A stretch of 58,062 nucleotides of DNA from a virus: IMG/VR virus record IMGVR_UViG_3300029120_000017. One strand, 5' to 3'. Under the pieces are notes generated by a model, which saw nothing but the letters and a program-made list of their open reading frames with translations, did no database searches and was not told the origin of the DNA. Below, piece by piece: positions 3,046-58,062 of this stretch. The translations under genes and the position numbers were made by a program. Every line of letters begins with the position of its first letter. Within the stretch, counting starts at the first letter, position 1.

Positions 3046-3725
3046 TTAGTTCATTAAATTCATGAAAAAATTATTGCAATTGTCTTTGATTTGACTTGCT
3101 GTCTGCAAGACTTTCTTTCCTCCTTTGCTTGTAGGTTGGTTCTTGCAAGGACTTTCGCCTTCTTCTTCATCAAATGGTTTTATACCTGGAATCGCTCTGT
3201 TGAGTAAAAGGATGTTGATGTAACTTCGCTTGAATACAACTTCATTGTACGACATTCTAAAGTACTTCATTACACCGCCAATCAATCCCCACGGGCTATC
3301 GCTTCTTTCGTATTCGTTGTTGTCTGACTGCACCCTTTTAGGAAAGTTATACTTTGCAAAAAAAAACTTGCATCAAACGAGAGTGAAGCGTATTGCAATA
3401 GCTCATTGTATTTCTTCATCGTCATGCGTTTGCGGATGAATCTGCCAAATATCTTTCTCATCAGTCTGGAACGGAAAACTATAATTGGTGTGATTTCATT
3501 TGCGTTTTTTACGTCTTTGAACATTGAGAAAACTTTCTGATATGGATTAAATTCACCTTCAATATTTATTTCTTCAATATCACCAATCTTTTCACCGATT
3601 TGCCATATCTGCGCCAAAGTCATCGGCCTAACCAAGAATGGAATCATACCGATAAAAACAAAAATTGGTCTCTCTGTTATTGCTCCTGCTGTGCTTTTTT
3701 CTTCACTTTTATTCATAACTGCCAA
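3046..3725 (-). CDS. tail assembly chaperone, programmed -1 frameshift fusion product (gpGT-like)
   Basis: Frame of 3282-3725 joins the -1 frame of 3046-3333 at the T9 run. The -1 frame is open from the run (FAKYNFPKRVQSDNNEY...) to the stop at 3046, 4 nt before the tape measure ATG. Confidence 0.6.
3282..3725 (-). CDS. tail assembly chaperone (gpG-like, zero-frame product)
   Basis: 147-aa ORF directly upstream of the tape measure gene; contains the slippery T-run near its 3' end. Confidence 0.6.
   Translation of the reverse strand: MAVMNKSEEKSTAGAITERPIFVFIGMIPFLVRPMTLAQIWQIGEKIGDIEEINIEGEFNPYQKVFSMFKDVKNANEITPIIVFRSRLMRKIFGRFIRKRMTMKKYNELLQYASLSFDASFFLQSITFLKGCSQTTTNTKEAIARGD
3358..3366 (-). 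promoter_or_regulatory. slippery site for -1 ribosomal frameshift (T TTT TTT within a T9 run on the coding strand)
   Basis: A9 on the plus strand. In the zero frame it reads AGT TTT TTT TTG; a -1 slip gives an open frame to 3046. Confidence 0.6.
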
Positions 3726-5133
3726 ATGTATTTTGTTTGTTTTCTTCCATATTTTCTTGCTTGATTTGCTTCAAAATTTCTTCTGGATTTGAAACAAGCG
3801 GATTTTGTCTTATTCCTTCCTCCTGCGACATCGTTGCCTTTCCTCCTGTAGAGCTGTTTATTAATTGCAATGTCTCAGCATCATTCTTTGGAATATACGG
3901 CGTAAATCTCGGCTTCACCCTCAACCTGTCAACGTCATTCTTTGGCATCGCTTTTATGCTCGTGGAATATCCGTTTTTGATGATATTGAAGCGCCTTGTA
4001 AACATCTCACCGAAGGTTTCAATTTTCTGCCCAGCCTTTAAATGAGGGTCGGTAAACATCAGTCTGATTGCTGCACCACTGGTGTTATTGCCAAGTGTTT
4101 TCATATTCTCAAAGGAGATGTCAGGTGTCTGTGTGTAGCTGAAGATTATGTTTATCAAATTAGCTATTTCCATTCTTCTACTCTCTGGGGCGCTATCCCA
4201 AGAAACAACCTTCATATCTGTTTCATTGTCTCCTTGGTAAACTCGTCCGACTTCTCCCTTGTCGGCGAATCCCTTCATCCGTCCTTTGAAGAAATATGTC
4301 GGTGAGCCAAAATAGTCGTTTGTATCGCCCCAATCGGAAATACTATTTTCTAATCGTTCAATGGTTTTTTGAACTGCTTCCCATTCTGTTTCTTCCTGCA
4401 TATAATAGACAAGAGGGATTTTTGTAAATCCATGAGGCTTTGCGCTGCGCAATGTTAATCCTGCTTCACTTTCATCGCTTGCAAATTTGTAGAGCGTGGA
4501 TGATGTGTAAACGTCAAAGCAATGCGTTTGCGCTCCTGTTTCATCTTTAAGGACATATTCGCGTGCAAATCCGTCCATCTTGTCGTAATTGTCGTAATGA
4601 GGGTACAATTTATCACCATACAACGGAGAAAGCAATTTCACGCGCATTTCCTTTTCGTTGTCTTCGTTTGTGGCAATATACCAAAGCTCAGCGCATTCAC
4701 AAGCACGAAACAAGCACCTCGACAATTTTTTGTTGAAATACTCTTCTTTGTTATCTTCAAGGATATTCAATACCTCATCAAATAATTTTGCTTGCATTTC
4801 ATCGGCTTCACCCTTAATGCTGTATGTTACAGGAATCGTGAAAAGAAAGCCCACACTTCTTTCTATTATCACTCTTTGACAAGGAACAGCAACACGGCAA
4901 CGGTGTCTCACTTCGGTCTTATAGGCGATGTTGCCGTTTTCGTCTTTTTTATCTGTCGGAGTTTTAACAATCTTATCCTTTCTGTATTGCGTGTCAAAAA
5001 TCAAATGACAATTAGGGTCGTACTCCCGTTCTGTAACCTCCAGCGGTTTTTTAAGTGGTTTCTTTCTCGCTGTCAGCAGAGAATAAATCTGGTAAGGGTC
5101 TCCGACTGATAAAATTTCTTGTATGGTCTTCAT
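3709..5133 (-). CDS. portal protein (SPP1 Gp6-like by appearance)
   Basis: 474-aa ORF immediately downstream of the large terminase gene; size and position typical of portals; family recognised by eye only. Confidence 0.65.
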   Translation of the reverse strand: MKTIQEILSVGDPYQIYSLLTARKKPLKKPLEVTEREYDPNCHLIFDTQYRKDKIVKTPTDKKDENGNIAYKTEVRHRCRVAVPCQRVIIERSVGFLFTIPVTYSIKGEADEMQAKLFDEVLNILEDNKEEYFNKKLSRCLFRACECAELWYIATNEDNEKEMRVKLLSPLYGDKLYPHYDNYDKMDGFAREYVLKDETGAQTHCFDVYTSSTLYKFASDESEAGLTLRSAKPHGFTKIPLVYYMQEETEWEAVQKTIERLENSISDWGDTNDYFGSPTYFFKGRMKGFADKGEVGRVYQGDNETDMKVVSWDSAPESRRMEIANLINIIFSYTQTPDISFENMKTLGNNTSGAAIRLMFTDPHLKAGQKIETFGEMFTRRFNIIKNGYSTSIKAMPKNDVDRLRVKPRFTPYIPKNDAETLQLINSSTGGKATMSQEEGIRQNPLVSNPEEILKQIKQENMEENKQNTFGSYE

Positions 5134-5135
5134 TT

Positions 5136-6344
5136 TTATATGATATTTAAAAAGTCTTGGGCATTAAATGAATTTTCGTCTTTTCCTAATAGCTTTTCAA
5201 GAACAACATAACGGACGGCATCTATACCGTGGTTGAATGAATCTATTGGCTCATTAAGCCATTTCCCATCTTTATTCTGCCTGTATGTATAATTCTTGAA
5301 CTCCTTCTTTAAATTCACGCTGCGGTTTGTGATAAAAATCTTCATAGTCTGCATCTTGTTTATACCAGCAATAATTGAACCAGCATATTTTCTTACAGGT
5401 TTTACATCAAGCCCAGCGTTATTTAATTCATCTATAAGTCTCGGGTCTGCACTTTCAGATATTATTTCAATATTCGACCTGTCACGATTATTGGCGTTCT
5501 TGATTTCTTTGATTATGTCTGACGACAGCATCTTTGTCTTATAGCAAATCTCATCCAACCATAGCTCATCGCCACAAATGTACACGTCTATAATCGCCGT
5601 TGGGTCGTTGGTATATCCGAAGTCCATTCCACGATAATGATGCTTTCTTTTTTCAAACGGTATGTAATCATGCTTTAGTTCTTTTACATTTTCAAAAATC
5701 AAGCCTTCAACTATCGCTTGCAAGCCTAAACCATAGATTCTCCAGAGTGAAGGATTCTTATTTTTTAAACTCTCTATCTCTTGGATAACCTTATCCTCCA
5801 AGAATGGATTATCTTTATATGTTGAAATGAACCAATATGTTGATGGCTCTTGGTTAATTTCGCAAATCCAGTGGTCATCCGTAAATGAGGGATTGTAGTC
5901 AATAATCGAAAAATCAGTGGTTCTCATTTGAAGCTGCTGCCATTGCAAGAAATCTAATTCATTTGCTTCATTGACGAAAAGAATCATTCTCTTTGAACCT
6001 CTGATTTTTTGCTCGTTATCTGTTGAAAAAAATTCTATCGTTGAGCCATTTGGAAACGTGTAAACCAAATCCGACTTGTTCATCTGTTTGTCGTTCCAAA
6101 TGTTCAACGATAGCATTATTTCCTTGAAATCTCTGTAGACAGAACGTTTTAATGACGGAAGGCCAGCGCGAACAATTGATACGGTTGTTCTTGGATGCAA
6201 CGAACAATAAATGCAGAGATATTGAACGATGGAATAAGTTTTTGCTGAACGTGAAGAACCTTGCAGAGAGACGGTTGTAAATCCCTGCTCTTTTGCAAAT
6301 TTTACTCTCGCATAGTTCTTTGTTACATAAACATTATTACTCAT
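5136..6344 (-). CDS. terminase large subunit
   Basis: 402 aa from ATG 6344 (MSNNVYVTKNY...), 8-nt overlap with the upstream stop. Walker-A-like GSSRSAKT. The track start at 6428 adds a Lys/Arg-rich extension overlapping the small subunit gene. Confidence 0.8.
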   Translation of the reverse strand: MSNNVYVTKNYARVKFAKEQGFTTVSLQGSSRSAKTYSIVQYLCIYCSLHPRTTVSIVRAGLPSLKRSVYRDFKEIMLSLNIWNDKQMNKSDLVYTFPNGSTIEFFSTDNEQKIRGSKRMILFVNEANELDFLQWQQLQMRTTDFSIIDYNPSFTDDHWICEINQEPSTYWFISTYKDNPFLEDKVIQEIESLKNKNPSLWRIYGLGLQAIVEGLIFENVKELKHDYIPFEKRKHHYRGMDFGYTNDPTAIIDVYICGDELWLDEICYKTKMLSSDIIKEIKNANNRDRSNIEIISESADPRLIDELNNAGLDVKPVRKYAGSIIAGINKMQTMKIFITNRSVNLKKEFKNYTYRQNKDGKWLNEPIDSFNHGIDAVRYVVLEKLLGKDENSFNAQDFLNII

Positions 6345-6840
6345 CGTAGCCAGTCTCTTGCTCTTGTTGCTCTTTTTCTTTTCGCTCCTTCTCTGATTGC
6401 ACTTCTTCTTGAATCTTTTTGAAGTCATCAGGGTTAGAAACGAAATTCAAAACAAACGCCTCCTTGTTAATGTCTGAGCCATTTGTCGTTATATCAATCT
6501 GTTTCTTACTCTCGCCGAATTGCCTATCTCTTAACTTGTCAATAGTTTTGGTTACTCCGTTTTTAATATCTGATATGATGGCGATTGCTAAATTTCTCGG
6601 GTACATTGGCGCGTCCTCCCATTTTGCCAATTTGCTTAACTGAGGCGCTGCCAATGATAAAACGGCCTTTTCCCATTCGTCTATTTCTATATTTGACAGG
6701 TTAAAAAATTTCCTCGCCTTCACCTTAGAGCCAAATATATTTTCAAGTTGTTTTGGAACTCTGTTAGGTGGCCTCCCCTTCGGATTTCCGCTCTGTCCTT
6801 TTTTCCATTGATAAGGAATGATATTCTTTGGGTCTCTCAT
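6337..6840 (-). CDS. terminase small subunit (putative)
   Basis: 167 aa, N-terminal GNPKGRPPN motif, acidic C-terminus, directly upstream of and overlapping the large terminase gene. Confidence 0.5.
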   Translation of the reverse strand: MRDPKNIIPYQWKKGQSGNPKGRPPNRVPKQLENIFGSKVKARKFFNLSNIEIDEWEKAVLSLAAPQLSKLAKWEDAPMYPRNLAIAIISDIKNGVTKTIDKLRDRQFGESKKQIDITTNGSDINKEAFVLNFVSNPDDFKKIQEEVQSEKERKEKEQQEQETGYDE

Positions 6841-6927: not shown

Positions 6928-7506
6928 CTATTTTATAAGATTGAAAAATTCATTACGCAATTGTGCATCATTTTTAAAAGCTCCTACAAGGTATGATGAT
7001 TTCATTTTGCCTTTTTTCTTTGCTCCACGCATAGACTTGCATAAATGTTCGCCCTCCATTACAAGAGCGACACCAAGAGGTGGATATTTAGATTTAAGAG
7101 CATCAGAGAGAATGTCTACAATTTCTCGTACAAGTCTTTCCTGTATTTGTAATTTTGCTGCACAATAATCTACAACGCGACCAATTTTAGAAATTCCAAG
7201 AATCCGACCTTTAGGATTGGGGATGTAAGCGAACCAGTAGCGGCCAAAAAATGGCATCATGTGATGTTCACACATTGAATAGAAGTCGCCTTCATCTATA
7301 ATCATATTTTCATAAGTTATGCCATCTTTCCCATTTTCGAATGTTGTTATTTTCGGTTTTTGTGAAGCATCGTAACCTCTGAATATTTCATTATACATTC
7401 TGGCTATTCTATCGGGCGTGCCTTTCAATCCTTCTCTGTTTACATCTTCCCCAATTAAAGATAAAATGCCTTTTATATGGTTTTCTATTTGTTCTTTCTT
7501 ATTCAT
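6928..7506 (-). CDS. folE: GTP cyclohydrolase I (FolE)
   Basis: IGEDVNREGLKGTPDRIARMY and CEHHMMPFFG...GISKIGRVVDY...QIQERL motifs; ATG 7506 overlaps the queE stop as ATGA. Confidence 0.9.
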   Translation of the reverse strand: MNKKEQIENHIKGILSLIGEDVNREGLKGTPDRIARMYNEIFRGYDASQKPKITTFENGKDGITYENMIIDEGDFYSMCEHHMMPFFGRYWFAYIPNPKGRILGISKIGRVVDYCAAKLQIQERLVREIVDILSDALKSKYPPLGVALVMEGEHLCKSMRGAKKKGKMKSSYLVGAFKNDAQLRNEFFNLIK

Positions 7507-8090
7507 CTTACATTTATAATTTTCTGCGTCTGTAATGAAATCGCCCATTGTGGGTGAGAAAGGCAATAATTTACAACACCCTTGATGTTGTTTTCTGTTT
7601 TTTCTTTATCTTTCAAATCACATGGTTGCAAGTAATAATTATCAGCAATAATCCTTTTATACTTATCCATGCAAGTTTTTTCGGCATCGAATACAACTTT
7701 TAATTCATCAATATGCTCTAAGGCAATATTCGCTTGATTGCAATATTCAAACTTTGGCGAGCATGTTATCCAATTTGCAAAAGAAAGTGCCTTATTGTTT
7801 CGCGTGCCATTTGTTTCAATATGAATATATTTTCCTTCTTCACATAACATGAGCATGAATTTTTCTGTTATCTGCAAAGTAGGCTCGCCGCCTGTCAGAA
7901 CAACATGCTTTGTCGGATATTTGATAATTTCTTGAATTATCTCTTCATCTGTGTACTCTTTATACGATTCGTGCTTTGTATCGCAAAAAGGACATTTTAG
8001 ATTACATCCAGCAAAGCGAATAAATACACAAGGAGTTCCAGTAAAAGCACCTTCACCTTGTATTGAATAAAATATTTCGTTAATCCTCAT
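7503..8090 (-). CDS. queE: 7-carboxy-7-deazaguanine synthase (QueE, radical SAM)
   Basis: N-terminal EIFYSIQGEG...FIRFAGCNLKCPFCDT cluster motif, 195 aa. Confidence 0.9.
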   Translation of the reverse strand: MRINEIFYSIQGEGAFTGTPCVFIRFAGCNLKCPFCDTKHESYKEYTDEEIIQEIIKYPTKHVVLTGGEPTLQITEKFMLMLCEEGKYIHIETNGTRNNKALSFANWITCSPKFEYCNQANIALEHIDELKVVFDAEKTCMDKYKRIIADNYYLQPCDLKDKEKTENNIKGVVNYCLSHPQWAISLQTQKIINVR

Positions 8091-8096
8091 TTTCTT

Positions 8097-8426
8097 TTAT
8101 TTTTCATAGATTGCGGTATTACCCTCACTTTCTTGTACAATTGCTTTATAGCACATTGGTATCTGCTCTACAATCCATTTTGCAATATTTTCTGCTGTTG
8201 GATTGAAGGGTAACAGCTCATTAAAATTTCCATGGTCAAGAAATCCATGAATTTTATTCTTTACATGCTTAAAGTCAATAACCATGCCATCAGAATTAAG
8301 ATTTTCCGCTTTGCAGAAAACGGTCACAATCCAATTATGACCATGCAAATTTTCGCATTTGCTTTCATAAGAAAGATTGAGGTGATGACATCCTGCAATC
8401 TCCATTCGTTTTGTTACGTAGTACAT
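8097..8426 (-). CDS. queD: 6-carboxy-5,6,7,8-tetrahydropterin synthase (QueD)
   Basis: 109 aa T-fold protein with CHHL...LHGHNW metal-site motifs, adjacent to queE. Confidence 0.85.
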   Translation of the reverse strand: MYYVTKRMEIAGCHHLNLSYESKCENLHGHNWIVTVFCKAENLNSDGMVIDFKHVKNKIHGFLDHGNFNELLPFNPTAENIAKWIVEQIPMCYKAIVQESEGNTAIYEK

Positions 8427-8437
8427 ATTTTATTTAT

Positions 8438-10036
8438 TAAAGTTTCGCAAGTGAAAATTCACAAGCGTGATTTAACGTAATTTTGGAATAAAAAAGGCTC
8501 TGAAGTTTGTATAACTCACAGAAAATGAGTATCTTTATAATCGCTAAACAATAAAGATAAAACTTCAAAGCCGTGAGCAAAGATACAAAAATTATTTCAG
8601 ATCTGCGAAGCTTTTTCGCAAAGAATAACGATAATCGTGCAATTAAGTGCATTATGGGTGTGATGGAACATATAAATATACGCTCCAGCCAGATTGGAGT
8701 AGAGAAGAAAGAGAACTGCAAGTTCACCACTTTGCAGGTACTCAACCTCCTCATGCTCTTCCCGTTCTTCGTAGTCAAGAATGCGAGTCGATACTCCAAC
8801 TCGTCCTTGAGTAAATTGTTCAATTGTGATAAAGACATGTTCTATCGTTTTATGAATGATGGCAACGTCAAGTGGCGCAAGTTACTATATGCAATGAATC
8901 TTCAGCTGATAAAGAAGATATCAAGCAGCACAACTGTTCATCATAACAAGCCAGTTTGTTTGATTATTGATGATACTGATGCACCTAAGACTGGTATGAC
9001 GACCGAACTCATAGGAAGAATCTGGTCTCATGTTCATCAAAAGAGCATCCTTGGTTATAAGTGTCTGACCATGATGTTGTCCGATGGCGTTAGCCAGCTC
9101 TTTCTCGATTTCTCTCTTCATGGTGAGGAGGGAAAGGACAAGCAAAAGGTTCAGGGACTTACTGCTAAGCAACGCAAAGCTCGCTATACCGAGGACCACG
9201 AAGGGCAAGCGGTAAAAGAGCGTGTGGATGAATATCTGATGAAGAAGACAGACAAGGCCATAGATATGGTCAAGTATGCCATCAAGCGAGGTGTTCGCTT
9301 TGATTACTTGCTCGTAGATAGCTGGTTTACAAACACTAAGCTTGTGCGTTTCATTTCCGGCAGACATATCAAGTGTCACCTGTTGGGCATGATTAAACTG
9401 GGCAAAACCAACTATGCAACGAAGCATGGTAAGATGAATGCCAAGCAAATCATCAAGCACCTGCAAAAGGAAAAGGCATGCAAACACAACAAAATACTTC
9501 GTTGTACCTATTGTACAATGGACGTTAAGTTGGATGGTGTGCCAGTCCGTTTGTTCTTTTGCAAACGAGGACGCAAGGGAAACTGGAATGGGTTGTTGAC
9601 CACAGACCTTTCTCTTAGCTTCCTTGAAGCGTATCGTATTTATGCCAGACGATGGGCTACCGAAGTTGCATACAAGGATTGTAAGACCTTGCTGAACTTT
9701 GGCAAATGCCAGTCTGTACATTTTGCCGCTCAAATTGCTAGCTTCACTTTGACAATGATGCAGTATAACATCTTGTGTACAGTGAAGAGATTTGAAGCGT
9801 ATGAAACCATCGGTGGTCTCTTTACAGAGGTTACCAATGACACTCTCGAGTTGTCCGTAACGGACAAGATATGGGCTATTATTTTGGACTTCGTTCTGGA
9901 GGCTGCAGAGCGTTACTCTATAGATGCCACAGAGTTACTGGCAGATTTCATCGAAAGTAATCCTGTTGCCCATACGCTACGTAATATGTATATTTATAAA
10001 CAAGCAAGTTGATATTTATTCACTTGCGAAACTTTA
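8438..10036 (+). mobile_element. IS4-family insertion sequence, apparently intact
   Basis: Perfect 18-bp terminal inverted repeats taaagtttcgcaagtgaa (8438-8455; reverse complement at 10019-10036). 8-bp direct repeat TTATTTAT at 8430-8437 and 10038-10045. Single DDE transposase ORF inside. Confidence 0.9.
8573..10012 (+). CDS. IS4-family DDE transposase
   Basis: 479 aa with CLIIDDTD, YLLVDSWF and YRIYARRWATEVAYKDCK (Y-R-E-K) signature blocks. Confidence 0.9.
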   Translation: MSKDTKIISDLRSFFAKNNDNRAIKCIMGVMEHINIRSSQIGVEKKENCKFTTLQVLNLLMLFPFFVVKNASRYSNSSLSKLFNCDKDMFYRFMNDGNVKWRKLLYAMNLQLIKKISSSTTVHHNKPVCLIIDDTDAPKTGMTTELIGRIWSHVHQKSILGYKCLTMMLSDGVSQLFLDFSLHGEEGKDKQKVQGLTAKQRKARYTEDHEGQAVKERVDEYLMKKTDKAIDMVKYAIKRGVRFDYLLVDSWFTNTKLVRFISGRHIKCHLLGMIKLGKTNYATKHGKMNAKQIIKHLQKEKACKHNKILRCTYCTMDVKLDGVPVRLFFCKRGRKGNWNGLLTTDLSLSFLEAYRIYARRWATEVAYKDCKTLLNFGKCQSVHFAAQIASFTLTMMQYNILCTVKRFEAYETIGGLFTEVTNDTLELSVTDKIWAIILDFVLEAAERYSIDATELLADFIESNPVAHTLRNMYIYKQAS

Positions 10037-10037
10037 G

Positions 10038-10925
10038 TTATTTATAATAATCTTGATTTCCACATATATCCTGATAGGATTTCTTTAGCATCGTTATGTC
10101 TAAAACTAAGGCATTTAAGTTACTTTGCTCGTAATTAAACGATAGTAGTTTTTTGTATTTTTCTTCACCAATTAATTGAATAATCTTTTCTGTTTTTATA
10201 TTGCGTATATGTCTCTGTTTAATAAAGCCATAACGAACCGATGAAAGCCAACTTGTAGAATCAGCAGAAGTGCAGAACGTATTTTGCTTTAGCAGCTCTT
10301 TTTCTGTGCATCCTAAAAGATGAACGTCAATTGTTGGTTTTCTTTTCTTAATATAACGAGCTATCTTGCCTACATAATTACTTTTTCCAGCAAATCTTAG
10401 CTCTGGAACTGAAATAGCAATATATTCTGAATAATCAATCAATCTATCAAGCCCCTTCATGCCATCTTCAAGGTGAAACACATTGATAATGCGATTTGAT
10501 TTCGGCAAATCCTTTCGCATACGCTTACGAAATTCCCATGCTGCATCAACTCCTAAAACTTTTTGACAGTCTATTTCTACAACGGTTGCACCATTATTGC
10601 AAGCGAGCGTGAACTCTACAAGACGGTCATACCATTTATTCATTAGTGCTGCATCCTTTTTGCCTTTCATTGCCCCAAACATCAGCGTAAAAAGTCCACT
10701 ATCCTGTATTACGTGCTTGCAATTACTTGATAAATGTCGCAGATATTTGTAGTCAATATCTTCAATATTATTCCTTGATTTAAGAAGTCTACTAACAAAG
10801 GGATATGCGGTGTAAAGAAAATAATTAACACCAAGCGTATGTATTATCTGATATTGGACTAATTTCTCCATACTCGCAAAATGCACCTTTATATTATCTG
10901 GTAAGTGTAGCGCCTCCATAACCAT
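10038..10925 (-). CDS. dpdA: DpdA-like DNA guanine transglycosylase (TGT superfamily)
   Basis: 295 aa with VIQDSGLFT, VHLLGC and TSADSTSW blocks resembling the DSG / hLlG / DSxxW motifs of DpdA/TGT enzymes; lies in the deazaguanine gene cluster. Confidence 0.7.
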   Translation of the reverse strand: MVMEALHLPDNIKVHFASMEKLVQYQIIHTLGVNYFLYTAYPFVSRLLKSRNNIEDIDYKYLRHLSSNCKHVIQDSGLFTLMFGAMKGKKDAALMNKWYDRLVEFTLACNNGATVVEIDCQKVLGVDAAWEFRKRMRKDLPKSNRIINVFHLEDGMKGLDRLIDYSEYIAISVPELRFAGKSNYVGKIARYIKKRKPTIDVHLLGCTEKELLKQNTFCTSADSTSWLSSVRYGFIKQRHIRNIKTEKIIQLIGEEKYKKLLSFNYEQSNLNALVLDITMLKKSYQDICGNQDYYK

Positions 10926-11220
10926 CCTCCCTTACCGTTACAGAATTTGCATTAAACTTTATCAAAATCCATTCGGCAATACTTTCACATGACATAGTTT
11001 TAAATTTGCATGGTTTGCCGAATTGAGAGTTTAATGCTCGTTCTATTTCTTGTTGTTGAGTTATAATTTCAATTTCACGTTCATTGTGTGCTACTTCAAA
11101 GGCGCAATCAATAACAAATACGTGGCGATGAATAGATGATAAAAAATTGCATTCTTCTGGAGCACAAGGATAATAATGAAATCCTTCTACCTCATTGTGA
11201 GTTAATACGTATCTTTTCAT
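10894..11220 (-). CDS. second QueD/PTPS-like T-fold protein, divergent
   Basis: 108 aa. His15, His31 and His33 (GFHYYP...SIHRHVF) are spaced like the QueD zinc triad. Otherwise divergent from the canonical queD at 8097-8426. Confidence 0.45.
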   Translation of the reverse strand: MKRYVLTHNEVEGFHYYPCAPEECNFLSSIHRHVFVIDCAFEVAHNEREIEIITQQQEIERALNSQFGKPCKFKTMSCESIAEWILIKFNANSVTVREDGYGGATLTR

Positions 11221-11807
11221 TTTATTTTTACTCCTTCGTATAATTTTGTTATTGTATTCAACTCCTTTTTTATATCTTCAATTTTCTCTGAATAAGTTTG
11301 AGGGATTTCAATTTGCAAGATGATGGAATTATTATGTTGTTCATCTTCTTTTGCTTTATTTTCTTCTTTCTCAAACATATCATCCAAATCAATATCTTGC
11401 TTATCTTTTAAGAATTCACATTCAAGGCCAAAATCCAACAATTCTTCCAAATTCCAATCATTAGCAAGCAAATCCCAACTATTCTGACCGAAAGCAATAT
11501 TGTCTTTTTGGATGTATGCCCGCAATTTCTTTGCGCTCGTGCCCGTTGGCAATACTTTAACAGGAGCATCTTTGTAGCCAAGCTCTTTCATGGCCCTGTA
11601 ACGCATATTGCCAAGAATTACGACAAGTTCTCCGTTATTATCGTATGCAACAATTTCGCGTAATTGAAGCATTTCTGGGTCATCCTCAATGCTTTTTTTA
11701 AGTGCTTCATAACGCTCATCCTTGATAAAACGAGGATTCTTTGGTACATCCTTAATTTGTCCAGTGTTAAGGTGCAAATCAGAAATTTTTATTGTTTTCG
11801 TCTGCAT
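11217..11807 (-). CDS. ParB-like N-terminal (ParBc) domain protein
   Basis: 196 aa; IKISDLHLNTGQ...PKNPRFI...VILGNMRYRAMKELG pattern typical of ParB/Srx-fold domains; acidic C-terminal half. Confidence 0.65.
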   Translation of the reverse strand: MQTKTIKISDLHLNTGQIKDVPKNPRFIKDERYEALKKSIEDDPEMLQLREIVAYDNNGELVVILGNMRYRAMKELGYKDAPVKVLPTGTSAKKLRAYIQKDNIAFGQNSWDLLANDWNLEELLDFGLECEFLKDKQDIDLDDMFEKEENKAKEDEQHNNSIILQIEIPQTYSEKIEDIKKELNTITKLYEGVKIK

Positions 11808-12639: not shown

Positions 12640-13731
12640 TTACTTCTTTTTGGCGTTGATAAAATCAGCAATATATAGCAATCCATGCTTTCGGCAAAAG
12701 TCTTGCACTTCCCTACCTCCACCATAGATAATCAGATTTGGGCGTTCAAGCCCGCTTATCTCCTGTGCTACCTGTAAATCAGATTTCAAGCTCTCCATCC
12801 AGCCATCAAGTCCACGTGTAAAGAAAGCATTGTAGCCTTTTGGAATACCCATTTTGTTGTATTCTATAAATTTATGCGACACATTCAAATCTGCATAGAC
12901 CTTTATACCGCATTCCTGTAAATATCTCGCCAACCATCTTTTCTTATAAATTAGTTGTATTCCCCACGCGATAGGTGTTTGGTCGTGACAACTGCAATTT
13001 GGCTCTACGACAGCCTTACATCCGCTTGTAAGCAATTTTATTGGGTCTTTGAATAATGCTTCAAATCTATAATCGTCAACATAGAAGTGATATGTGACAA
13101 CGTCCTTTCTCAGTCTGCTGTTTGCACCCCAAGGCGATAATGGCAATTCCAATTTTCCTGCTTGCATTTCCTTCAGCAAATTTGGTATTTCAAAGTCATT
13201 ATCACTTTCGTAGAGTACATCTTTAAACATAGAGCGATAGAAGTTTTCTTTTTCTTCTTCGCTATTGTTTTCAACATTGCTGCCTTCTGTCTCATTCTCT
13301 TGGCTTGAAATATCCTCCGCCTCCTTTAATTGGCTGACTTTCTCCTTTGGAAATTCAATCCCAATGAAATCGAAATCTACATCCTTGAAGGCATCATCTA
13401 TCTTCAAGGCATCAAAATTCCACTCTCCATTCTCCTTATTGTCTCGCAATATTAATTCGTTTTCTTCATCCTTGCTTAAATCACGATATAAAATAGTGGG
13501 AAGTTCATTGATTTTCAGTTTTCGCGCAGCCTTCAATCGCTGATTGCCACACAAAACAATCAATCGTCCATCCCTCTCAGTAAGAGCCAATGGTCTATGT
13601 TCCCAAAAGCCATTTATGGTAATGGAATCAACCAACCTATCCATCTCTTCCTTCTTAATTTTTCGCGGATTATTAGGAAGCGGATGTAAGTCAGCCACCT
13701 TTCTATATGTGATTTCTTTTTCTGCTTTCAT
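12640..13731 (-). CDS. ParB-like N-terminal domain fused to a DUF4417-like C-terminal domain
   Basis: 363 aa. N-terminus VADLHPLPNNPRKI...VLCGNQRLKAARKL (ParBc-like), acidic linker, C-terminal about 190 aa (YHFYVDDYRFE...WGIQLIYKKRWLARY...) recognised by eye as DUF4417-like. Confidence 0.55.
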   Translation of the reverse strand: MKAEKEITYRKVADLHPLPNNPRKIKKEEMDRLVDSITINGFWEHRPLALTERDGRLIVLCGNQRLKAARKLKINELPTILYRDLSKDEENELILRDNKENGEWNFDALKIDDAFKDVDFDFIGIEFPKEKVSQLKEAEDISSQENETEGSNVENNSEEEKENFYRSMFKDVLYESDNDFEIPNLLKEMQAGKLELPLSPWGANSRLRKDVVTYHFYVDDYRFEALFKDPIKLLTSGCKAVVEPNCSCHDQTPIAWGIQLIYKKRWLARYLQECGIKVYADLNVSHKFIEYNKMGIPKGYNAFFTRGLDGWMESLKSDLQVAQEISGLERPNLIIYGGGREVQDFCRKHGLLYIADFINAKKK

Positions 13732-14960: not shown

Positions 14961-14991
14961 TTGCTAAATATCTAATTAATACGCAAATATA

Positions 14992-24126: not shown

Positions 24127-24226
24127 CGTCCTCGTCTTTATTGGCTATATGTTGTGCATATACAACAACGGTTAACATCGCCACCATAATCAGCATGGCG
24201 ATAATACAAAATGCAATTCTTATCAT
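24104..24226 (-). CDS. 40-aa single-TM peptide with acidic tail (putative)
   Basis: ATG 24226 overlaps the erf stop as ATGA; MIRIAFCIIAMLIMVAMLTVVVYAQHIANKDEDDEEDKTE; below the ORF-track cutoff. Confidence 0.3.
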   Translation of the reverse strand: MIRIAFCIIAMLIMVAMLTVVVYAQHIANKDEDDEEDKTE

Positions 24227-24873
24227 TTCGGGTATTTTTTAGATGCCTCTTGAACGGCCTCACTAAATCTCGGATTGGATTGCAAGTCCTTATTCTCGTT
24301 CCAAATCGTTGTAAGTGTCTTTCTGCTTCTCGCGTGGCTTATATCTTGCAGGAGCAACATCAAACGCTCTTCATCGACCTGCGGCGCTTGCTGTTTCACT
24401 TGCTTTGGCGCTTGTTTTGGCTTGGCCTGGCTCACCGTTGCTGTTGTACTCTGTTGTGCAGCTTGTACCTGTTGCGCGTATTCATTCGTATCTGCATCTT
24501 TAGTGTCGTCAATAGCAAAGAGATTACCAAGCGCATATTTCTTGGCATAGCTCATTGCAGCACCTGTAATCTGCGAACCATCCATACCTTTTTTCGTTTC
24601 TTCCTCGCGTGCCATACCGCTTGCACTCTCGCTTGTTTTCCCATCCGAAATCGTCACCGTGCATTCTACATAGATGCGATTTAGATGTTCGCTGATTTTC
24701 GATTCCGTCACAAGCGTCAAACCCATCTCGCGGAGGAAGGGTTTTGTCGCGGCCAATATGCTTTCTGCGCTTCTATAACGATAGTTACCAAACTTGTTAT
24801 ACAAGTCCTTCGGCGCTTCTAACTTTGTCTGAATCAGATTCAGTTTTTCGTGTAATGTCATTTTATTTTCCAT
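24223..24873 (-). CDS. erf: Erf-family single-strand annealing protein
   Basis: ATG 24873 (MENKMTLHEKLNLIQTKL...); FGNYRYRSAESILAATKPFLREMGL and GAAMSYAKKYALGNLFAIDD blocks typical of ERF proteins. Confidence 0.75.
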   Translation of the reverse strand: MENKMTLHEKLNLIQTKLEAPKDLYNKFGNYRYRSAESILAATKPFLREMGLTLVTESKISEHLNRIYVECTVTISDGKTSESASGMAREEETKKGMDGSQITGAAMSYAKKYALGNLFAIDDTKDADTNEYAQQVQAAQQSTTATVSQAKPKQAPKQVKQQAPQVDEERLMLLLQDISHARSRKTLTTIWNENKDLQSNPRFSEAVQEASKKYPK

Positions 24874-24883
24874 TGTGTTTGAA

Positions 24884-24924
24884 TTTAAAAAGCAAAGCCG
24901 TCCGTACTTGCAGGTACGAACGGC
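24884..24924 (-). terminator. hairpin plus T-tract (rho-independent terminator-like) immediately upstream of erf
   Basis: Stem 24897-24907 / 24914-24924 (one mismatch), followed on the minus strand by tttgcttttt. Confidence 0.45.
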
Positions 24925-25077
24925 CACCTTAGTATGAATTATGAGTATGACAAGCGGAAGAACTAATTATCCCAATCCGTTGCGACCGCCCCTGTTAACT
25001 ATAGTCTCCTACCATTAACAAGTTGAATATTTGATAGAAATATCTTTCTTATATATAGCATAAAATAAACGTAATTG

Positions 25078-27361: not shown

Positions 27362-28033
27362 ATGAAAGATAGACTACTTAAATTCATTAATTACAAAGGA
27401 GTTTCACAAAGACAATTCCTTCTTAAAGCAGGCTTGTCGACCAGCTATTTATCTGTTGTCAAAGATGATTTCGGTGTTTCCGCGTTGTTCAATATTTCAC
27501 AAAACTTTCCCGAGCTAAATATTGAATGGCTTAAAACTGGAAAAGGGGAAATGCTTAATAAAGGATTTGAAAACAACGACAATAACTTTGACAAGCTGTC
27601 TAATTTCTTCTTCGCTAACGGTGAGCAAAAGCCAATCATTACGGAGAGTATTGCTAAGATTCCTAACATTGACGTGTTGGAGCTTGTCAAAAGCGGAAAG
27701 GTTCAGAATCTGGAATACATGGGAGCATTTAATCAATTTCCACCTTTTGATTTCTATTTTAGAAATGATAGGGTATCAATGGAACCTCAATTTATGCGTG
27801 GGGATTTAATTGCGTTGTCAGCACTGCAAGAGAATGCGGTTATTGAAAGCGGCGCTCCTTATATAATAGACACAAAGAGTATTGGATTTATTTTCAGAAA
27901 CGTTTATGAGCGCGGCGATAAGTATGAATGCAAGGTTTCAAATCAAAAAAGTCAGTTGGAAGATATAAATATAGAAAAAAGCGATGTGATTAAAATTTAT
28001 CGTGTCGTTGGCTTAGTAAGAACAAATTTTTAA
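27362..28033 (+). CDS. CI-like repressor (N-terminal HTH, C-terminal S24 LexA-type peptidase domain)
   Basis: 223 aa; N-terminal KGVSQRQFLLKAGLSTSYLS; C-terminal RVSMEPQFMRGDLIAL (S-M-x-P...GD) autocleavage-type motif. Confidence 0.75.
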   Translation: MKDRLLKFINYKGVSQRQFLLKAGLSTSYLSVVKDDFGVSALFNISQNFPELNIEWLKTGKGEMLNKGFENNDNNFDKLSNFFFANGEQKPIITESIAKIPNIDVLELVKSGKVQNLEYMGAFNQFPPFDFYFRNDRVSMEPQFMRGDLIALSALQENAVIESGAPYIIDTKSIGFIFRNVYERGDKYECKVSNQKSQLEDINIEKSDVIKIYRVVGLVRTNF

Positions 28034-28380: not shown

Positions 28381-28417
28381 ATCCACTGGCAAAATTAATT
28401 GTCAGTGGATTTTTTTA
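28381..28417. terminator. bidirectional hairpin terminator between the convergent membrane-protein and integrase genes
   Basis: 10-bp stem 28381-28390 / 28401-28410 flanked by an A-run and a T7 run. Confidence 0.6.
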
Positions 28418-29633
28418 CATAGTCTATTACTTTCTTGATTGCTTGGTCAACCTTCTTTTCATTCCTTCTTATATATATATCTGCGATTTGGTATTGTGGC
28501 TTGTGCCCAAGAGCAGCATCAATAACAGCATCTGGAATATCAATGTCTGCGGCGATAGTCGCCCATGTGTGTCTTGCCCAATATGTCGTAAGATGTGGAA
28601 ACAGAGGCTTGAATATTTTTTCTTTCTTCACTCGTCCATATCTGTTTCTCACATTAATAATGTCTGTCTTTCCTATTTTCTGTAAGTTCTTGTTTATCGT
28701 TCTAACGAAAGACCTTTTATCCTCATGTGTCTCTCCGAAGTTAAGCAGTTTCTTTTCTCCGCGATATTTTCGTATGAGCTTCATTGCTTCGTTTGGAATT
28801 TTAAGACTGCAAAGAACTCCTGTCTTACTCCTTCGGTATGTTATTCTCTGCTCTTCGTTTGGGTGCGGCAAATCAAGCAAATCAACCATGTTTATTCCTG
28901 CGCAATAAAAGGAGATTAGGAAAATGTCAAGATATTTTTGCTGATAATCTTCGCATTTAAAATTCATCAGTGATAATAATTCCTTGATTGTCAAAGAGCG
29001 TTTTTCAGTCTGTTCAGATTTTATTCTGAATTTCCTGAATGGGTAAAATTCTTGTGCTACATAATCTTCACGAATTGCCTCGTTGAATAAGGCGCGAAGA
29101 TTGCGCAAATGAATGGAGCGCGTGTTTACTGAATTTCCTTTTGCCTGCATCCAAGTATCGAAATCGACTAACCATTTGTAATCAATCTCCTCAAATGATA
29201 AATTATCAATATCGCAATAATTGCCAATCTTAATTATTGTGCCTTCGTAAACCTCTTTTGTTCTATCTTTTGTCTTCCTTGAAATGAATATCTTGAAATA
29301 TTCTTTGATATAATGTGGCCGTTCTTCTTCTGTTTCTTCGCGAGGGTTTATTTGTTCACGTATATCTTTGGCCGTCATCTTGTCAAGATTCTTAGATGAA
29401 CTTAATAAGATGATTTGCATCCTAAGATATTCCAATTTCGATTTTAAAACTTGATTCAATCTTTTTGCCAGAGGAGTGTTAATAACCTCTCCGTTCAGCC
29501 ATTCCTCCTTTCTTAAATATACAGATGTCGGAATCATGGAGGATGTATTATTGTGCCGAATTACAATTTTTACACAATATTTTCCAGATTTATTTTTGGC
29601 CCTTGCATCGAGGTACAGATTAATTTTTGCCAT
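28395..29633 (-). CDS. int: tyrosine integrase
   Basis: ATG 29633 (MAKINLYLDARAK...); C-terminal ARHTWATIA...LGH...IYI catalytic-type motifs; next to attP. Confidence 0.9.
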   Translation of the reverse strand: MAKINLYLDARAKNKSGKYCVKIVIRHNNTSSMIPTSVYLRKEEWLNGEVINTPLAKRLNQVLKSKLEYLRMQIILLSSSKNLDKMTAKDIREQINPREETEEERPHYIKEYFKIFISRKTKDRTKEVYEGTIIKIGNYCDIDNLSFEEIDYKWLVDFDTWMQAKGNSVNTRSIHLRNLRALFNEAIREDYVAQEFYPFRKFRIKSEQTEKRSLTIKELLSLMNFKCEDYQQKYLDIFLISFYCAGINMVDLLDLPHPNEEQRITYRRSKTGVLCSLKIPNEAMKLIRKYRGEKKLLNFGETHEDKRSFVRTINKNLQKIGKTDIINVRNRYGRVKKEKIFKPLFPHLTTYWARHTWATIAADIDIPDAVIDAALGHKPQYQIADIYIRRNEKKVDQAIKKVIDYVKKSTDN

Positions 29634-29769
29634 TTGCACGGATTTTGCACGGTTCTACATTTTGATGGATTGCACGTGTTTTGCACGGATTTTCGGCAAA
29701 TTTCGGCATAATACGGCATAATACGGCATAAATTTATGGCTTTAACATTTGAATATAGAGACAAAATAA

Positions 29770-39033: not shown

Positions 39034-40311
39034 CTATGCCAGTTTCAAAAGGTCTTCCAGCGCGGAGACACGAATTGCCAAGGCGGAAATGGCATCGGTG
39101 GTGGCGGCGGTTTTCGTTTGATAAACTCCTTGTATTTCTCTTCCAAAGACTAATAGGCAAGAATCATCAACCGCAATTCCTACACCTTGGGCAATTTGAA
39201 CACCAGTGCCAATTGCGATTTTAGTACCGAAATCTTGATGAATTCCTTGTAAATTAGTCCCAATCGCGTTAGTGCCGAGCATTACGCCTTCATAAGATTC
39301 AAAACCATCTGAAATATAAATATTATCATGCAAATCAACGCCATTATCGATATTGATATTGCCTCCAATATTCACAGAATCTCCGATTTTGGAATTACTT
39401 CCGATTTTGGTATCTGTACCAATTACCGCTTTAAGACTATTATATTGGGCATTCTGAATAATAAAACCTTCAGTATTACTATTATAAACCTTCACACCCT
39501 GAACTCTTCCATCCACCGCATCAAGTTTTACCTTATCAGCGGCAGACATAACGCCAGCCGTGGTAGAGGTGGCAGGAAGAATACCAAGGTCACTTTCCGT
39601 AGTCGCCTCTCGTCCGTTGACAAAGGTAATGGTCTTCTTGAATGATACGCCATTATCCTGCGGAACATCTTCCTCCTGTGCGAATTTCACATTTGCAACG
39701 GCGGTGTCTTCAATTTCGCTCTTCTTGGCGTATGGTGTCAAATCCTGAACACCTTGCAACGCGTCCCAATTTTTGGTAGTTGCTGGGTCAATGGCAGCGC
39801 TGAAAGCCGTAACACATACCACGTTAACGCCAGCAGGATAAGCCTTGCCGTCAATGGTCACGGCATCGGTGATATTCCAAACATCGCCAGCCTTTGCAGA
39901 AGTGAGGGCCTTCAACTGAGCGGCAGTGCATGAACCCTTAGTTGTGTACACACTTCCAAGGGCAGAAACCTTGCTATCTGCGTAGCTCTTGGCAGAAGCA
40001 AGGGCGCTGTTAGCTTTCGTAGTCGCGTCTGTAGCGGCAGCACTGACGGCCTCTGTCTTCTTGGTATCGGCATAGCTCTTCGCTGATGTCAGCGTGGCAG
40101 CGTCCTTGCTGTCAATTTCGCTCTTTGAGTAAGTTTTGCCGCTTGCAGAGGCGATAGATGCTTTCAACTCTTTGTTGATGTCGCTCTGCAATTTATCCTC
40201 TTCAAGGTCAACGACTTGCGAGGCTTCAACTGCAACGCCGTCACTCGTATCTGATTTAATACGAGAGGTATATTTGATATAGTCGGATGCTACTCCGTAT
40301 TTTTTTGCCAT
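39034..40311 (-). CDS. tail fibre protein
   Basis: 425 aa; repeated SAKSYAD(T/S)K motifs, A/T/S-rich fibrous N-terminal part, G/I/N-rich beta-like C-terminal part. Confidence 0.6.
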   Translation of the reverse strand: MAKKYGVASDYIKYTSRIKSDTSDGVAVEASQVVDLEEDKLQSDINKELKASIASASGKTYSKSEIDSKDAATLTSAKSYADTKKTEAVSAAATDATTKANSALASAKSYADSKVSALGSVYTTKGSCTAAQLKALTSAKAGDVWNITDAVTIDGKAYPAGVNVVCVTAFSAAIDPATTKNWDALQGVQDLTPYAKKSEIEDTAVANVKFAQEEDVPQDNGVSFKKTITFVNGREATTESDLGILPATSTTAGVMSAADKVKLDAVDGRVQGVKVYNSNTEGFIIQNAQYNSLKAVIGTDTKIGSNSKIGDSVNIGGNINIDNGVDLHDNIYISDGFESYEGVMLGTNAIGTNLQGIHQDFGTKIAIGTGVQIAQGVGIAVDDSCLLVFGREIQGVYQTKTAATTDAISALAIRVSALEDLLKLA

Positions 40312-47394: not shown

Positions 47395-47595
47395 ATGGAA
47401 TACACAATAGAAGAAATACAAACAATGCTGAATATTGTTTCGGCTGTACTTCACAATAGGCGTTATCAGCAAGGTAGCACATTACGCATATCAACGGTTT
47501 ATAATATTGACGATTTCGACATATCGACAATGGAAAAATGGATTGCGTATTGGAAGCAAACAATAGATTCAACAAAACCGACTAAAATTAAATAA
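47395..47595 (+). CDS. hypothetical protein, paralog of 18559-18756
   Basis: 66 aa, ...TVYNIDDFDISTMEKWIAYWKQTIDSTKPTKIK. Confidence 0.6.
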   Translation: MEYTIEEIQTMLNIVSAVLHNRRYQQGSTLRISTVYNIDDFDISTMEKWIAYWKQTIDSTKPTKIK

Positions 47596-47917: not shown

Positions 47918-47930
47918 TGGTAATAAGACA

Positions 47931-47993
47931 ATGAGGAAATGTGTTGCATATTGGAAGCAAACAATAGACGCAATAAAACCGACTAAGAAATGA
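47931..47993 (+). pseudogene. 20-codon remnant of the 47395-47595 / 18559-18756 gene family (MRKCVAYWKQTIDAIKPTKK)
   Basis: About 60-nt near-duplicate of 47530-47595, including the 20-nt identity tattggaagcaaacaataga. The following ATGAAGAAT is also duplicated. Confidence 0.55.
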
Positions 47994-56417: not shown

Positions 56418-58062
56418 TTAAAGCCTCCTTGTATTTCTTTCGATTTGGTTTAGTCGTTCGTTCATTTGGTATAACTCATTCGTGTTTTTGGCTATCGTTG
56501 CCAAATGACTTGCTGAGGTCCGTTGTATTTCAAGAATCTCTGCTGTGGATGTCTCTGCTTGCGCAAAATGCGTCTTTAAATTATCCAAAATACTTTGATT
56601 TGAAATTTGAATGGCTGCAAACCTACCGTTCAGTTCATCGCCTTTGTCTGCTGACATAGCTGTGAAGGATGTAGTTTGGCTTCCACTCGAAGAACCACTC
56701 TTGCTCCATCCATAGATGTCTTGAAGATTCTTCGCTTCATTACGAGCTTTCTCAACAATCTGCATATAGCTTTCTTGCAATTTGCTCACCTCACCAACAG
56801 AGATGTTTCCATCTTCATTGGATTTAGCAAATTCATCGTACCATTCTTCAAGCATATCTTTGTACTTCTCGCCAAGTTTAGTTTGAATTACGGCATTTTT
56901 GAGATAGCCAGTGAAGTTATCAGCAAAATCTCTTGTGCTGCTATCCATATTGGAAATTAGCTTGGTGAAGTCATTGTAAACGCTGTCAAATGAGGTAGCG
57001 GTTAACTGCTGTTGCAATTTGTCAAGAGTGTCTTCTGCGGTATCTCCAAGACTGATAATCTTGTTGTAATAGTCGCGTGTCTCAGCATCTAATTTTGACC
57101 AAAAATCTGCATCTGATATCTTTACCTTTTCCAGCTCTTCGGCAGTAAGGCTCTGCAAATCTTGAACTGAACTAATCGTTTTGCCAACGGCCCTTGATAC
57201 ATTCGTCCAATTATCCTGCGTCATCCAAGAGTTTTGTCTGTAATTGATAGAGTGGCTTCCTGCACTTGCGCCGCTCTCTCCGCGCACCTTAATAAGATTG
57301 CGCAAAGCCTGCTCGTCAGCCTTGACTATTGACATAACATCATCATAGGCGTTTTTTGCTTCGATTCCATACGACAAATTAATATACTCTGTCTTCTTGC
57401 TAATAAGCTCGTCCCAGATGGATGATATTTTTTGGTATTCTGCCTTTAATTTATTATAGCTTGAATAATCCGCGCCAAAGCCAAGCATCTTTCCAATACC
57501 TTCAAATGTATGTGCAACTCCTGTGATTGTGCCAGCAACAGCACTGACGGCCAATGCAACATCATTGATTGGATTCGTGAGGCTGAGCAAATCTCCCAAA
57601 TTTGTTATATCAATATCTTTGAATGAATCGGCAAATTCTGACAGGCCCTTTGTAAACTCTTCAAATCCTTCATTGAATGAATCTGAATATTTCACACCGA
57701 ATGCACCAAGCATATTTTTAACACTCTTAAATGCTTTAGCAACACCGCTGATGGTTGCAGAAACACGAGCCTGCGCCTCGGCTGCTGCATATTGTGCCTT
57801 AATGTATTCCTTGGTTGATTCAACTGCTTCTTTTAAAGCATCACCGAAGGATTTGTTGTAAGAGTTTTTTTGCTCTTTTAATTCCTCCTGTTGCTTGACA
57901 TCGCCTTTGGCAACTGCCTCTTGGTAAGCCTTATAGATATTCTTTCCGTTAACGGTGAAGCCTTCTAACGTTGCTTGCCTTGCATATTTGGTGGCCCTTG
58001 CATCAGAAAGTTTTCTTAATGATGCCCCAAAGGTATCATATTGCGACCTTGCCGACTGAACT
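56418..58062 (-). CDS. tail tape measure protein, C-terminal part (continuation of 1-3041 across the junction)
   Basis: The track lists only 56418-57713. I translated 57714-58062 in the same frame and found no stop and no ATG/GTG/TTG, so the ORF is open to the window edge. Confidence 0.8.
   Translation of the reverse strand, partial: VQSARSQYDTFGASLRKLSDARATKYARQATLEGFTVNGKNIYKAYQEAVAKGDVKQQEELKEQKNSYNKSFGDALKEAVESTKEYIKAQYAAAEAQARVSATISGVAKAFKSVKNMLGAFGVKYSDSFNEGFEEFTKGLSEFADSFKDIDITNLGDLLSLTNPINDVALAVSAVAGTITGVAHTFEGIGKMLGFGADYSSYNKLKAEYQKISSIWDELISKKTEYINLSYGIEAKNAYDDVMSIVKADEQALRNLIKVRGESGASAGSHSINYRQNSWMTQDNWTNVSRAVGKTISSVQDLQSLTAEELEKVKISDADFWSKLDAETRDYYNKIISLGDTAEDTLDKLQQQLTATSFDSVYNDFTKLISNMDSSTRDFADNFTGYLKNAVIQTKLGEKYKDMLEEWYDEFAKSNEDGNISVGEVSKLQESYMQIVEKARNEAKNLQDIYGWSKSGSSSGSQTTSFTAMSADKGDELNGRFAAIQISNQSILDNLKTHFAQAETSTAEILEIQRTSASHLATIAKNTNELYQMNERLNQIERNTRRL
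57964..58062. repeat. second copy of the 99-bp terminal repeat
   Basis: Identical to 1-99. Confidence 0.95.

Follow-up and report, generated by a model that had tools for sequence, protein, structure and literature searches.

The window analysed here, by which we mean the whole stretch of 58,062 nucleotides in IMG/VR virus record IMGVR_UViG_3300029120_000017, contains an insertion sequence (IS) lodged in a phage operon of 7-deazaguanine genes. The order on the minus strand is a ParB-like gene (11217–11807), dpdL, a dpdA-like gene, the IS, queD, queE, folE, terS, terL and the portal gene. The IS separates the dpdA-like gene from queD and is oriented antiparallel to the operon, an arrangement described in a first-pass annotation made from the sequence alone and confirmed here from the positions and strands of the open reading frames (ORFs). 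The features of the insertion itself are:

8437–10037, plus strand: complete IS, 1601 bp, assigned to the ISPepr1 subgroup of the IS4 family
8437–8455, plus strand: left terminal inverted repeat, 19 bp, first base T where 72/72 other copies have C
10019–10037, plus strand: right terminal inverted repeat, 19 bp, with the canonical G as final base
8573–10012, plus strand: transposase ORF, 479 amino acids (aa) from a GTG start, uninterrupted; an alternative ATG at 8654 would give 452 aa
8430–8436: left copy of the target duplication, TTATTTA, single in IS-free relatives and in agreement with the target consensus
10038–10044: right copy of the target duplication, TTATTTA, including the dpdA stop codon (TAA, minus strand, 10040–10038)

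The first-pass annotation had placed perfect 18-bp inverted repeats at 8438–8455 and 10019–10036 and left a single unexplained base beside the right one. The perfect 18-nt repeat is present at those positions, as the inner 18 bp of longer ends. Outside the TAAAG, a C is found in 54/54 left ends and 3/3 right ends from Segatella genomes, as well as in 18/18 left ends from IMG/VR contigs, and the canonical element is therefore 1601 bp long with 19-bp repeats CTAAAGTTTCGCAAGTGAA, so that its true limits are 8437–10037. Position 8437 is the first base of the element and is T in the window copy only, unique among 73 copies; the G at 10037 is the last base, and its place inside the element explains the one-base gap. 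All 10 copies compared share the length of 1601 bp, and the base composition of the element (GC 0.42–0.46 in 400-nt windows) is distinct from that of its immediate flanks (about 0.30–0.37).

The claim of an intact IS4-family element with an uninterrupted DDE transposase on the plus strand is upheld: the ORF at 8573–10012 matches the NCBIfam IS4 model NF049925 (transpos_IS4_4) with 376.4 bits against a cut-off of 250 (E = 1.8e-112), the window copy has no indels relative to nine others, and the ORF measures 479 aa in 8 of these nine. The protein contains the motifs IIDDTD (residues 131–136), LLVDSWF (246–252) and YREK (YARRWATEVAYKDCK, 357–371). No record of the exact 479-aa protein was found; the 452-aa form is recorded in one 1.7-kb contig of an unrelated sample, with 15 nucleotide differences and an identical protein, the identity to the window transposase running from residue 28 onward. 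A search of the PDB by sequence returned no match to the transposase or to the DpdA-like protein. The 90% cluster of the transposase comprises 5697 member sequences, and the element is very common and apparently active. Two further observations concern the left part of the element. A 13-nt inverted repeat on the plus strand (8496–8508 / 8560–8572, 92% complementary, 51-nt loop) abuts the transposase GTG and, by analogy with other IS elements, could sequester the translation start. On the minus strand, an antisense ORF of 133 aa (8437–8838) has a stop codon that coincides with bases 1–3 of the element and precedes the queD ATG by 10 nt; this codon is TAA in the window and TAG in copies that begin with C, the frame is also open in two further copies (L064 and L068), and the ORF is probably fortuitous.

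The ISPepr1 subgroup has been described as typically 1500–1600 bp in length, with ends of the form YT-AA-YTT---A, the YREK signature, duplications of 7–8 bp and AT-rich targets (De Palmenaer et al. 2008, PMC2266710, Table 1). On the evidence of its sequence we assign the window element to this subgroup: the canonical end CTAAAGTTTCGCA agrees with the consensus at 8/8 specified positions and begins 5′-CT, the duplication is 7 bp, the targets are AT-rich, the full YREK signature YARRWATEVAYKDCK is present in a single 479-aa ORF, and the size of 1601 bp lies at the top of the range. The window copy differs from the other 72 copies of this element in beginning with T (TTAAAG...) rather than C; since consensus position 1 is Y, which the T still fits, this first base is not necessarily disabling. 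The IS701 family was considered in view of the best Pfam match of the transposase, DDE_5. However, IS701 elements have 4-bp duplications and ends of the form ---YACT-Y, and in IS701, ISH3 and IS1634 the signature Y-(2)-R-(3)-E-(6)-K, which surrounds the catalytic E, is incomplete or missing (PMC2266710); the 7-bp duplication, the YREK signature, the differing ends and the scores of the IS701 NCBIfam models (68–81 bits, far under cut-offs of 150–250) rule it out. A literature search for a named IS4 element of Prevotella copri gave nothing specific.

The octamer TTATTTAT occurs at both 8430–8437 and 10038–10045 and had been taken as an 8-bp target duplication, with the dpdA stop codon in its right copy. 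The two flanking copies, their origin as a true target duplication and the position of the stop codon (10038–10040) all stand; the length does not. Across 68 distinct left flanks of the element, T is found at −7 in 52, T at −3 in 45 and A at −1 in 62, and A+T makes up 87% of the last 9 nt as compared with 66% at −20 to −12. The resulting target consensus, TWAWTWA, is 7 bp long and near-palindromic, with the T at −7 marking the boundary of the duplication, and TTATTTA matches it at every position. Duplications of 7 bp also flank two genomic copies and one IMG/VR copy (TAAATTA, TTAATTA and TGAGTTA), while one copy has 6 bp and one 9 bp. Given the target consensus, we therefore read the duplication as 7 bp, accompanied by a substitution of T for C at position 1 of the element; the same sequence would also result from an 8-bp duplication in which the terminal C was lost, which is less likely.

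Comparison with IS-free relatives, which the first-pass annotation had proposed as a check, was performed by searching with the DpdA-like protein. Six close IMG/VR relatives were obtained, all of which lack the IS; five extend across the junction and align to the reconstructed empty site without gaps at 90.6–97.2% identity. One relative (L054) is identical to the reconstructed site over 100 bp. The exact QueD protein was found in 196 blocks of the assembly collection, and in 10/10 of the places listed dpdA, 3 nt and queD follow one another with no IS. In total, 15/15 relatives (the five from IMG/VR and ten further contigs) are collinear across the junction and contain the heptamer once, and the flanking duplication is therefore real. 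The spacing of about 3 nt predicted between the dpdA stop and the queD ATG after removal of the element is exactly 3 nt in the IS-free relatives. The transposition was also described as recent; this holds only in a relative sense, as a divergence of about 3% over an 8-kb region separates the window from the nearest IS-free relatives found.

To find candidate host genomes, also proposed at the outset, the first 30 nt of the left end were compared with one genome per bacterial species. The 53 matching loci belong almost entirely to the Segatella (Prevotella) copri complex, with 4, 4 and 9 sites in three assemblies as counted from the listing. Seven full-length chromosomal copies from the S. copri complex align to the whole of the window copy without indels, at 97.8–98.9% identity. 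The presence of the element in multiple copies in S. copri points to this species complex as the host. The element is also present at full length in two other IMG/VR viral contigs, with phage-family neighbors in both and a 7-bp duplication in one, whereas INPHARED phage records gave no megablast match to the IS and no close relative of the phage backbone. Among individual copies, one exact left-end match lies in a metagenome-assembled genome labeled Lachnospiraceae bacterium (CAVBFV010000260.1, L009), the other named matches being Segatella or Prevotella; this label is probably a binning error. Among the chromosomal copies of Segatella copri HDD05 (L025) and strain F3-48 (L033), one has a premature stop at codon 221, and strain F3-48 has two copies whose left ends lie about 1 kb apart and point away from each other.

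The ends of the window overlap by 99 nt (1–99 = 57964–58062), and the assembly is therefore circular, with a length of 57,963 bp. Outside the operon, the phage genes include:

28395–29639, minus strand: tyrosine integrase (Phage_int_SAM_5, E = 1.4e-18, above cut-off; Phage_integrase, 26.4 bits, just below its cut-off of 27.1)
27362–28033: S24 repressor-like ORF
24223–24927: ERF recombinase

SSB, antirepressor, terminase and portal proteins are encoded as well. Contigs of 131, 205 and 272 kb contain relatives with an identical QueD, indicative of integrated prophages, and the phage is temperate. No tRNA genes were found in the phage genome that might give a clue to the attachment site, and the species-representative genomes contained one distant relative of the DpdA-like protein only, hence no reference prophage. 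Subtracting the IS and one of the duplicated heptamers leaves a genome of 56,355 bp. Three related IMG/VR contigs measure 55.2–56.5 kb, and the 1601 bp of the IS therefore add 2.9%. Elsewhere in the genome, a 60-nt direct repeat (47526–47585 / 47927–47986, 85% identity, 401-nt spacing) and a second pair at 39684 and 40086 (402-nt spacing) suggest tandemly duplicated small genes.

We consider it very probable that the window records a genuine cut-and-paste insertion of an IS from the chromosome of the S. copri complex (ISPepr1, IS4) into a temperate Segatella phage. A 7-bp staggered cut was made by the transposase at TTATTTA, a heptamer spanning the stop codon of the dpdA-like gene, and gap repair then duplicated this heptamer, keeping the dpdA stop and 10 nt before the queD ATG and breaking no ORF. 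As the phage is temperate (with an integrase, a repressor and relatives in large contigs), the simplest history is transposition into a resident prophage, and the insertion most likely took place in a prophage within a host chromosome bearing several copies of the IS. The IS-bearing genome would later have been excised or replicating, because it was assembled as a circle with no host flanks. The precise placement between two genes may be due both to the concentration of AT-rich heptamers at gene boundaries in a densely coding phage and to the loss of insertions within essential genes.

The genes on either side of the insertion belong to a probable DNA-modification module, followed by the packaging genes:

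10894–11220, minus strand: DpdL homologue, 108 aa, 42% identical (E = 4e-30) to CGPG_00067 of Cellulophaga phage phiST
10038–10925, minus strand: DpdA-like gene, a 295-aa ORF (293 aa from the ATG at 10919) matching PHROG 887, queuine tRNA-ribosyltransferase (E = 2.3e-18)
8097–8426, minus strand: queD, 6-carboxytetrahydropterin synthase, 109 aa (ATG at 8426–8424; Pfam PTPS, E = 3.7e-25), the first gene downstream of the IS
7503–8090, minus strand: queE, radical-SAM 7-carboxy-7-deazaguanine (CDG) synthase (Pfam Radical_SAM and Fer4_12)
6928–7566, minus strand: folE, GTP cyclohydrolase I (Pfam GTP_cyclohydroI, E = 5.7e-55), 192 aa according to the gene calls in relatives
6337–6840, minus strand: terS
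5136–6428, minus strand: terL
3709–5133, minus strand: portal gene

The queD product scores 82 bits (E = 3.1e-23) with the NCBIfam QueD model TIGR03367, under its cut-off of 89.25. The DpdA-like protein has no match in Pfam or NCBIfam. Its AlphaFold model (pLDDT 89.9) matches 72 PDB structures at E ≤ 0.001; the 50 of these that were listed are all tRNA-guanine transglycosylases (TGTs), with a best E of about 3e-6 and TM values of 0.57–0.64. The model thus has a confident TGT fold, and the protein is presumed to be a DNA 7-deazaguanine transglycosylase; with this fold and gene context, the dpdA label of the first-pass annotation is reasonable. Compared with DpdA3 of phiST, the sole described DpdA included, the similarity is confined to one short motif and is not significant (E = 0.022). 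The 1483 homologues found at E ≤ 1e-5 all lack a Pfam domain and are all named 'hypothetical', and this family could be an undescribed subfamily of DpdA.

The 108-aa ORF shows no significant similarity to the window QueD and was rejected as a second QueD in favor of a DpdL homologue. CGPG_00067 of phiST was named DpdL and proposed to be a 7-carboxy-7-deazaguanine decarboxylase; it is a QueD paralogue in which CxxxHGH is changed to LxxxHRHxF, and it is found beside dpdA in phages with folE, queD and queE and without queC (Cui et al. 2023, PMC10516641). The signature is present in the window ORF as LSSIHRHVF, and no SGGxDS or CxxCxxCxxR motif of queC was found in any frame of the window. The gene set FolE, QueD, QueE, DpdL and DpdA3 without QueC has been linked to 2′-deoxy-7-deazaguanine (dDG) (Cui et al. 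2023, PMC10516641). The presence of folE, queD, queE and a DpdL homologue and the lack of queC suggest, by prediction from the gene content, dDG in the DNA of the window phage. The likeness to the phiST pathway covers these genes, the LxxxHRHxF signature, a transglycosylase of TGT fold and the lack of QueC-type motifs; in contrast, the window transglycosylase is not detectably related to DpdA3 beyond the one motif, the phage is temperate and the module is split by an IS. Just upstream of dpdL and dpdA, two minus-strand ORFs (11217–11807 and 12640–13731) have weak ParB_N matches below cut-off, one of them fused to DUF4417. The bacterial Dpd system requires the ParB-like DpdB along with DpdA, and the two ORFs might have a DpdB-like role.

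The insertion would be expected to affect transcription of the genes downstream, and the first-pass annotation had proposed that it uncouples queD, queE and folE from their promoter or drives them from an outward promoter in the IS. Since the element is antiparallel to the operon, phage transcripts that pass through it would be antisense to the mRNA of the transposase. Passage through 1.6 kb of untranslated antisense IS RNA would abolish translational coupling and expose the transcript to Rho-type polarity, with partial relief by read-through, so that transcription of queD, queE, folE and the co-transcribed genes downstream would probably be lowered but not necessarily abolished. Polarity on queD, queE and folE is thus plausible from the sequence. 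No strong intrinsic terminator was found on the minus strand of the IS, which has four weak hairpins (−7 to −10 kcal/mol) as compared with about 1.4 expected from the density in the whole window. Host queuosine-precursor genes could buffer the loss of phage queD, queE and folE. That the IS might switch the modification phenotype is, at this stage, conjecture.

A more severe outcome is that the phage is a crippled dead end, in which polarity on queD, queE and folE, possibly extending to terminase and portal, or the additional 2.9% of DNA blocks the formation of virions, leaving only excision and replication. In its favor, terS, terL and the portal gene lie on the same strand with no consensus promoter between them and the IS, the junction is known from one sample only, and the IS is missing from all 15 relatives examined. 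The circular assembly with no host flanks, however, implies excised or replicating DNA at good coverage, and the IS lacks a strong terminator. The protein families of the terminase and portal (Terminase_3, Terminase_6N and SPP1_portal) suggest headful packaging by analogy, and SPP1-type phages, which package by the headful mechanism, have a terminal redundancy that accommodates a few percent of additional DNA. On balance we regard such a dead end as unlikely.

Still less probable, in our judgment, is functional rewiring, whereby an outward promoter in the left end of the IS drives queD, queE and folE, altering the timing or amount of modification, in the way that cfiA or ermF is driven by IS elements of Bacteroides. 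The window was scanned with the full Bacteroidetes promoter motif (TTTG, 19–22 nt, TAnnTTTG). Upstream on the minus strand it occurs only at 14991, with none from there to the structural genes, so that genes downstream of the IS need read-through or a new promoter. Two partial motifs were found near the left end:

8478–8485, plus strand: Bacteroidetes-type −7 box TAATTTTG, 88 nt upstream of the transposase GTG
8578–8585, minus strand: −7-like motif TATCTTTG, the only one reading out of the left end to queD, without a −33 box at the correct spacing of 19–21 nt

We infer that the first is a candidate promoter of the transposase itself. In favor of rewiring, the second, at 8585–8578, precedes the queD ATG by 152 nt and does not vary among the 10 copies compared; however, 34 such −7-like sites occur on the minus strand in 58 kb, and TATCTTTG is therefore present at chance frequency. 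Moreover, the genes next to 58 other insertions are oriented without bias (30 directed away from the left end and 28 towards it). With no −33 box, a chance frequency and no bias, the outward promoter that had been put forward is unsupported. Sigma-70-type promoters were set aside, as 20 were found against 20.6 expected in shuffled sequence and the type is wrong for Bacteroidota; the same applies to a sigma-70-like hybrid across the junction (8455–8427), which ends 1 nt from the queD ATG. The Bacteroides elements IS1186, IS942 and IS4351 have outward promoters and lie upstream of cfiA, cepA or erm genes. The window IS resembles these in being an IS of a Bacteroidota host placed directly upstream of genes severed from their native promoter, but it belongs to the ISPepr1 group and shows no promoter evidence; we know of no outward promoter in that group.

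Several observations weigh against an insertion by transposition into the phage genome. The same genome is recorded in ENA (ERZ914739 k127_138886; 58,090 bp = 57,963 + 127-nt overlap) and in JGI (3300045988 Ga0495776_016624; 58,062 bp, 99-nt overlap), both from run ERR589790 (PRJEB6997) and both 100% identical to the window where fetched, and the window looks like a rotated form of these original records. Each of them opens at window position 10038, a single base beyond the right end of the IS, and their closure overlap is therefore IS sequence. A branch in the assembly graph at the edge of the repeat is evident, and host copies could have contributed to a consensus in parts of the IS interior. 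The left junction between IS and phage had no match in JGI metagenome contigs and is so far known from a single sample, the IS-bearing phage is known here from assembled sequence and not as infectious particles, and the T as first base of the element requires a later mutation or an atypical 8-bp event. An assembly artefact, in which a host IS repeat was threaded into the contig of a phage that itself has no IS, would fit the multicopy state of the IS in the likely host, the closure within IS sequence and the fact that 16/18 IMG/VR contigs holding the left end break 46–220 nt into the element, but is very unlikely, because a misjoin would not yield a 7-bp duplication of a site that is single in 15 relatives and matches the target consensus, the left junction with its copy-specific T at 8437 is internal to the original contigs, and several of the 8 substitutions specific to this copy fall no more than 160 nt from the right end. 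Since no misjoin could produce the duplication and its agreement with the consensus, the insertion stands despite the closure inside a repeat.

The first-pass annotation considered an IS in a phage DNA-modification pathway unusual, which was an overstatement: the phage is temperate, the same IS is present in the two other viral contigs, and in a survey of 900 phage and plasmid genomes 92% of phages were IS-free, so that about 8% contained an IS (Leclercq, Gilbert and Cordaux, PMC3429520). An IS within a phage is uncommon but well known. The situation described here is like that of other IS-bearing temperate phages and prophages in that a host IS occupies a non-essential or intergenic position and travels along, and IS insertions are known in lambda and Stx prophages; it differs in that the target is a gene boundary in a 7-deazaguanine module of an uncultured human-gut Segatella prophage family.

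The insertion adds one well-documented case of a host IS in a phage, with its empty site, target consensus and host assignment, and the near-identical IS copies link this phage family, which is uncultured, with the Segatella copri complex. It also illustrates that the circular closure of a contig can fall within a repeat, and virome catalogues merit a check for such cases. As a remote possibility, the atypical terminal base, or modified G-containing inverted repeats during lytic growth, may lock the IS in the phage; if so, it would be fixed in place and the phage would be a vehicle spreading the element between S. copri clades. The window provides a natural insertion variant of a probable dDG modification operon that could be compared with abundant IS-free relatives, given access to the sample or to a lysogen. 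It is improbable, though worth stating, that the IS acts as a natural polar split of this operon, with queD, queE and folE uncoupled from dpdL and dpdA and the DNA less modified, unmodified or reliant on host CDG; if true, the split and IS-free genomes would be a near-isogenic pair for testing the role of the modification in Segatella. Biologically, the IS is probably of less interest than the DpdL gene and the unannotated family of DpdA-like proteins in gut prophages.

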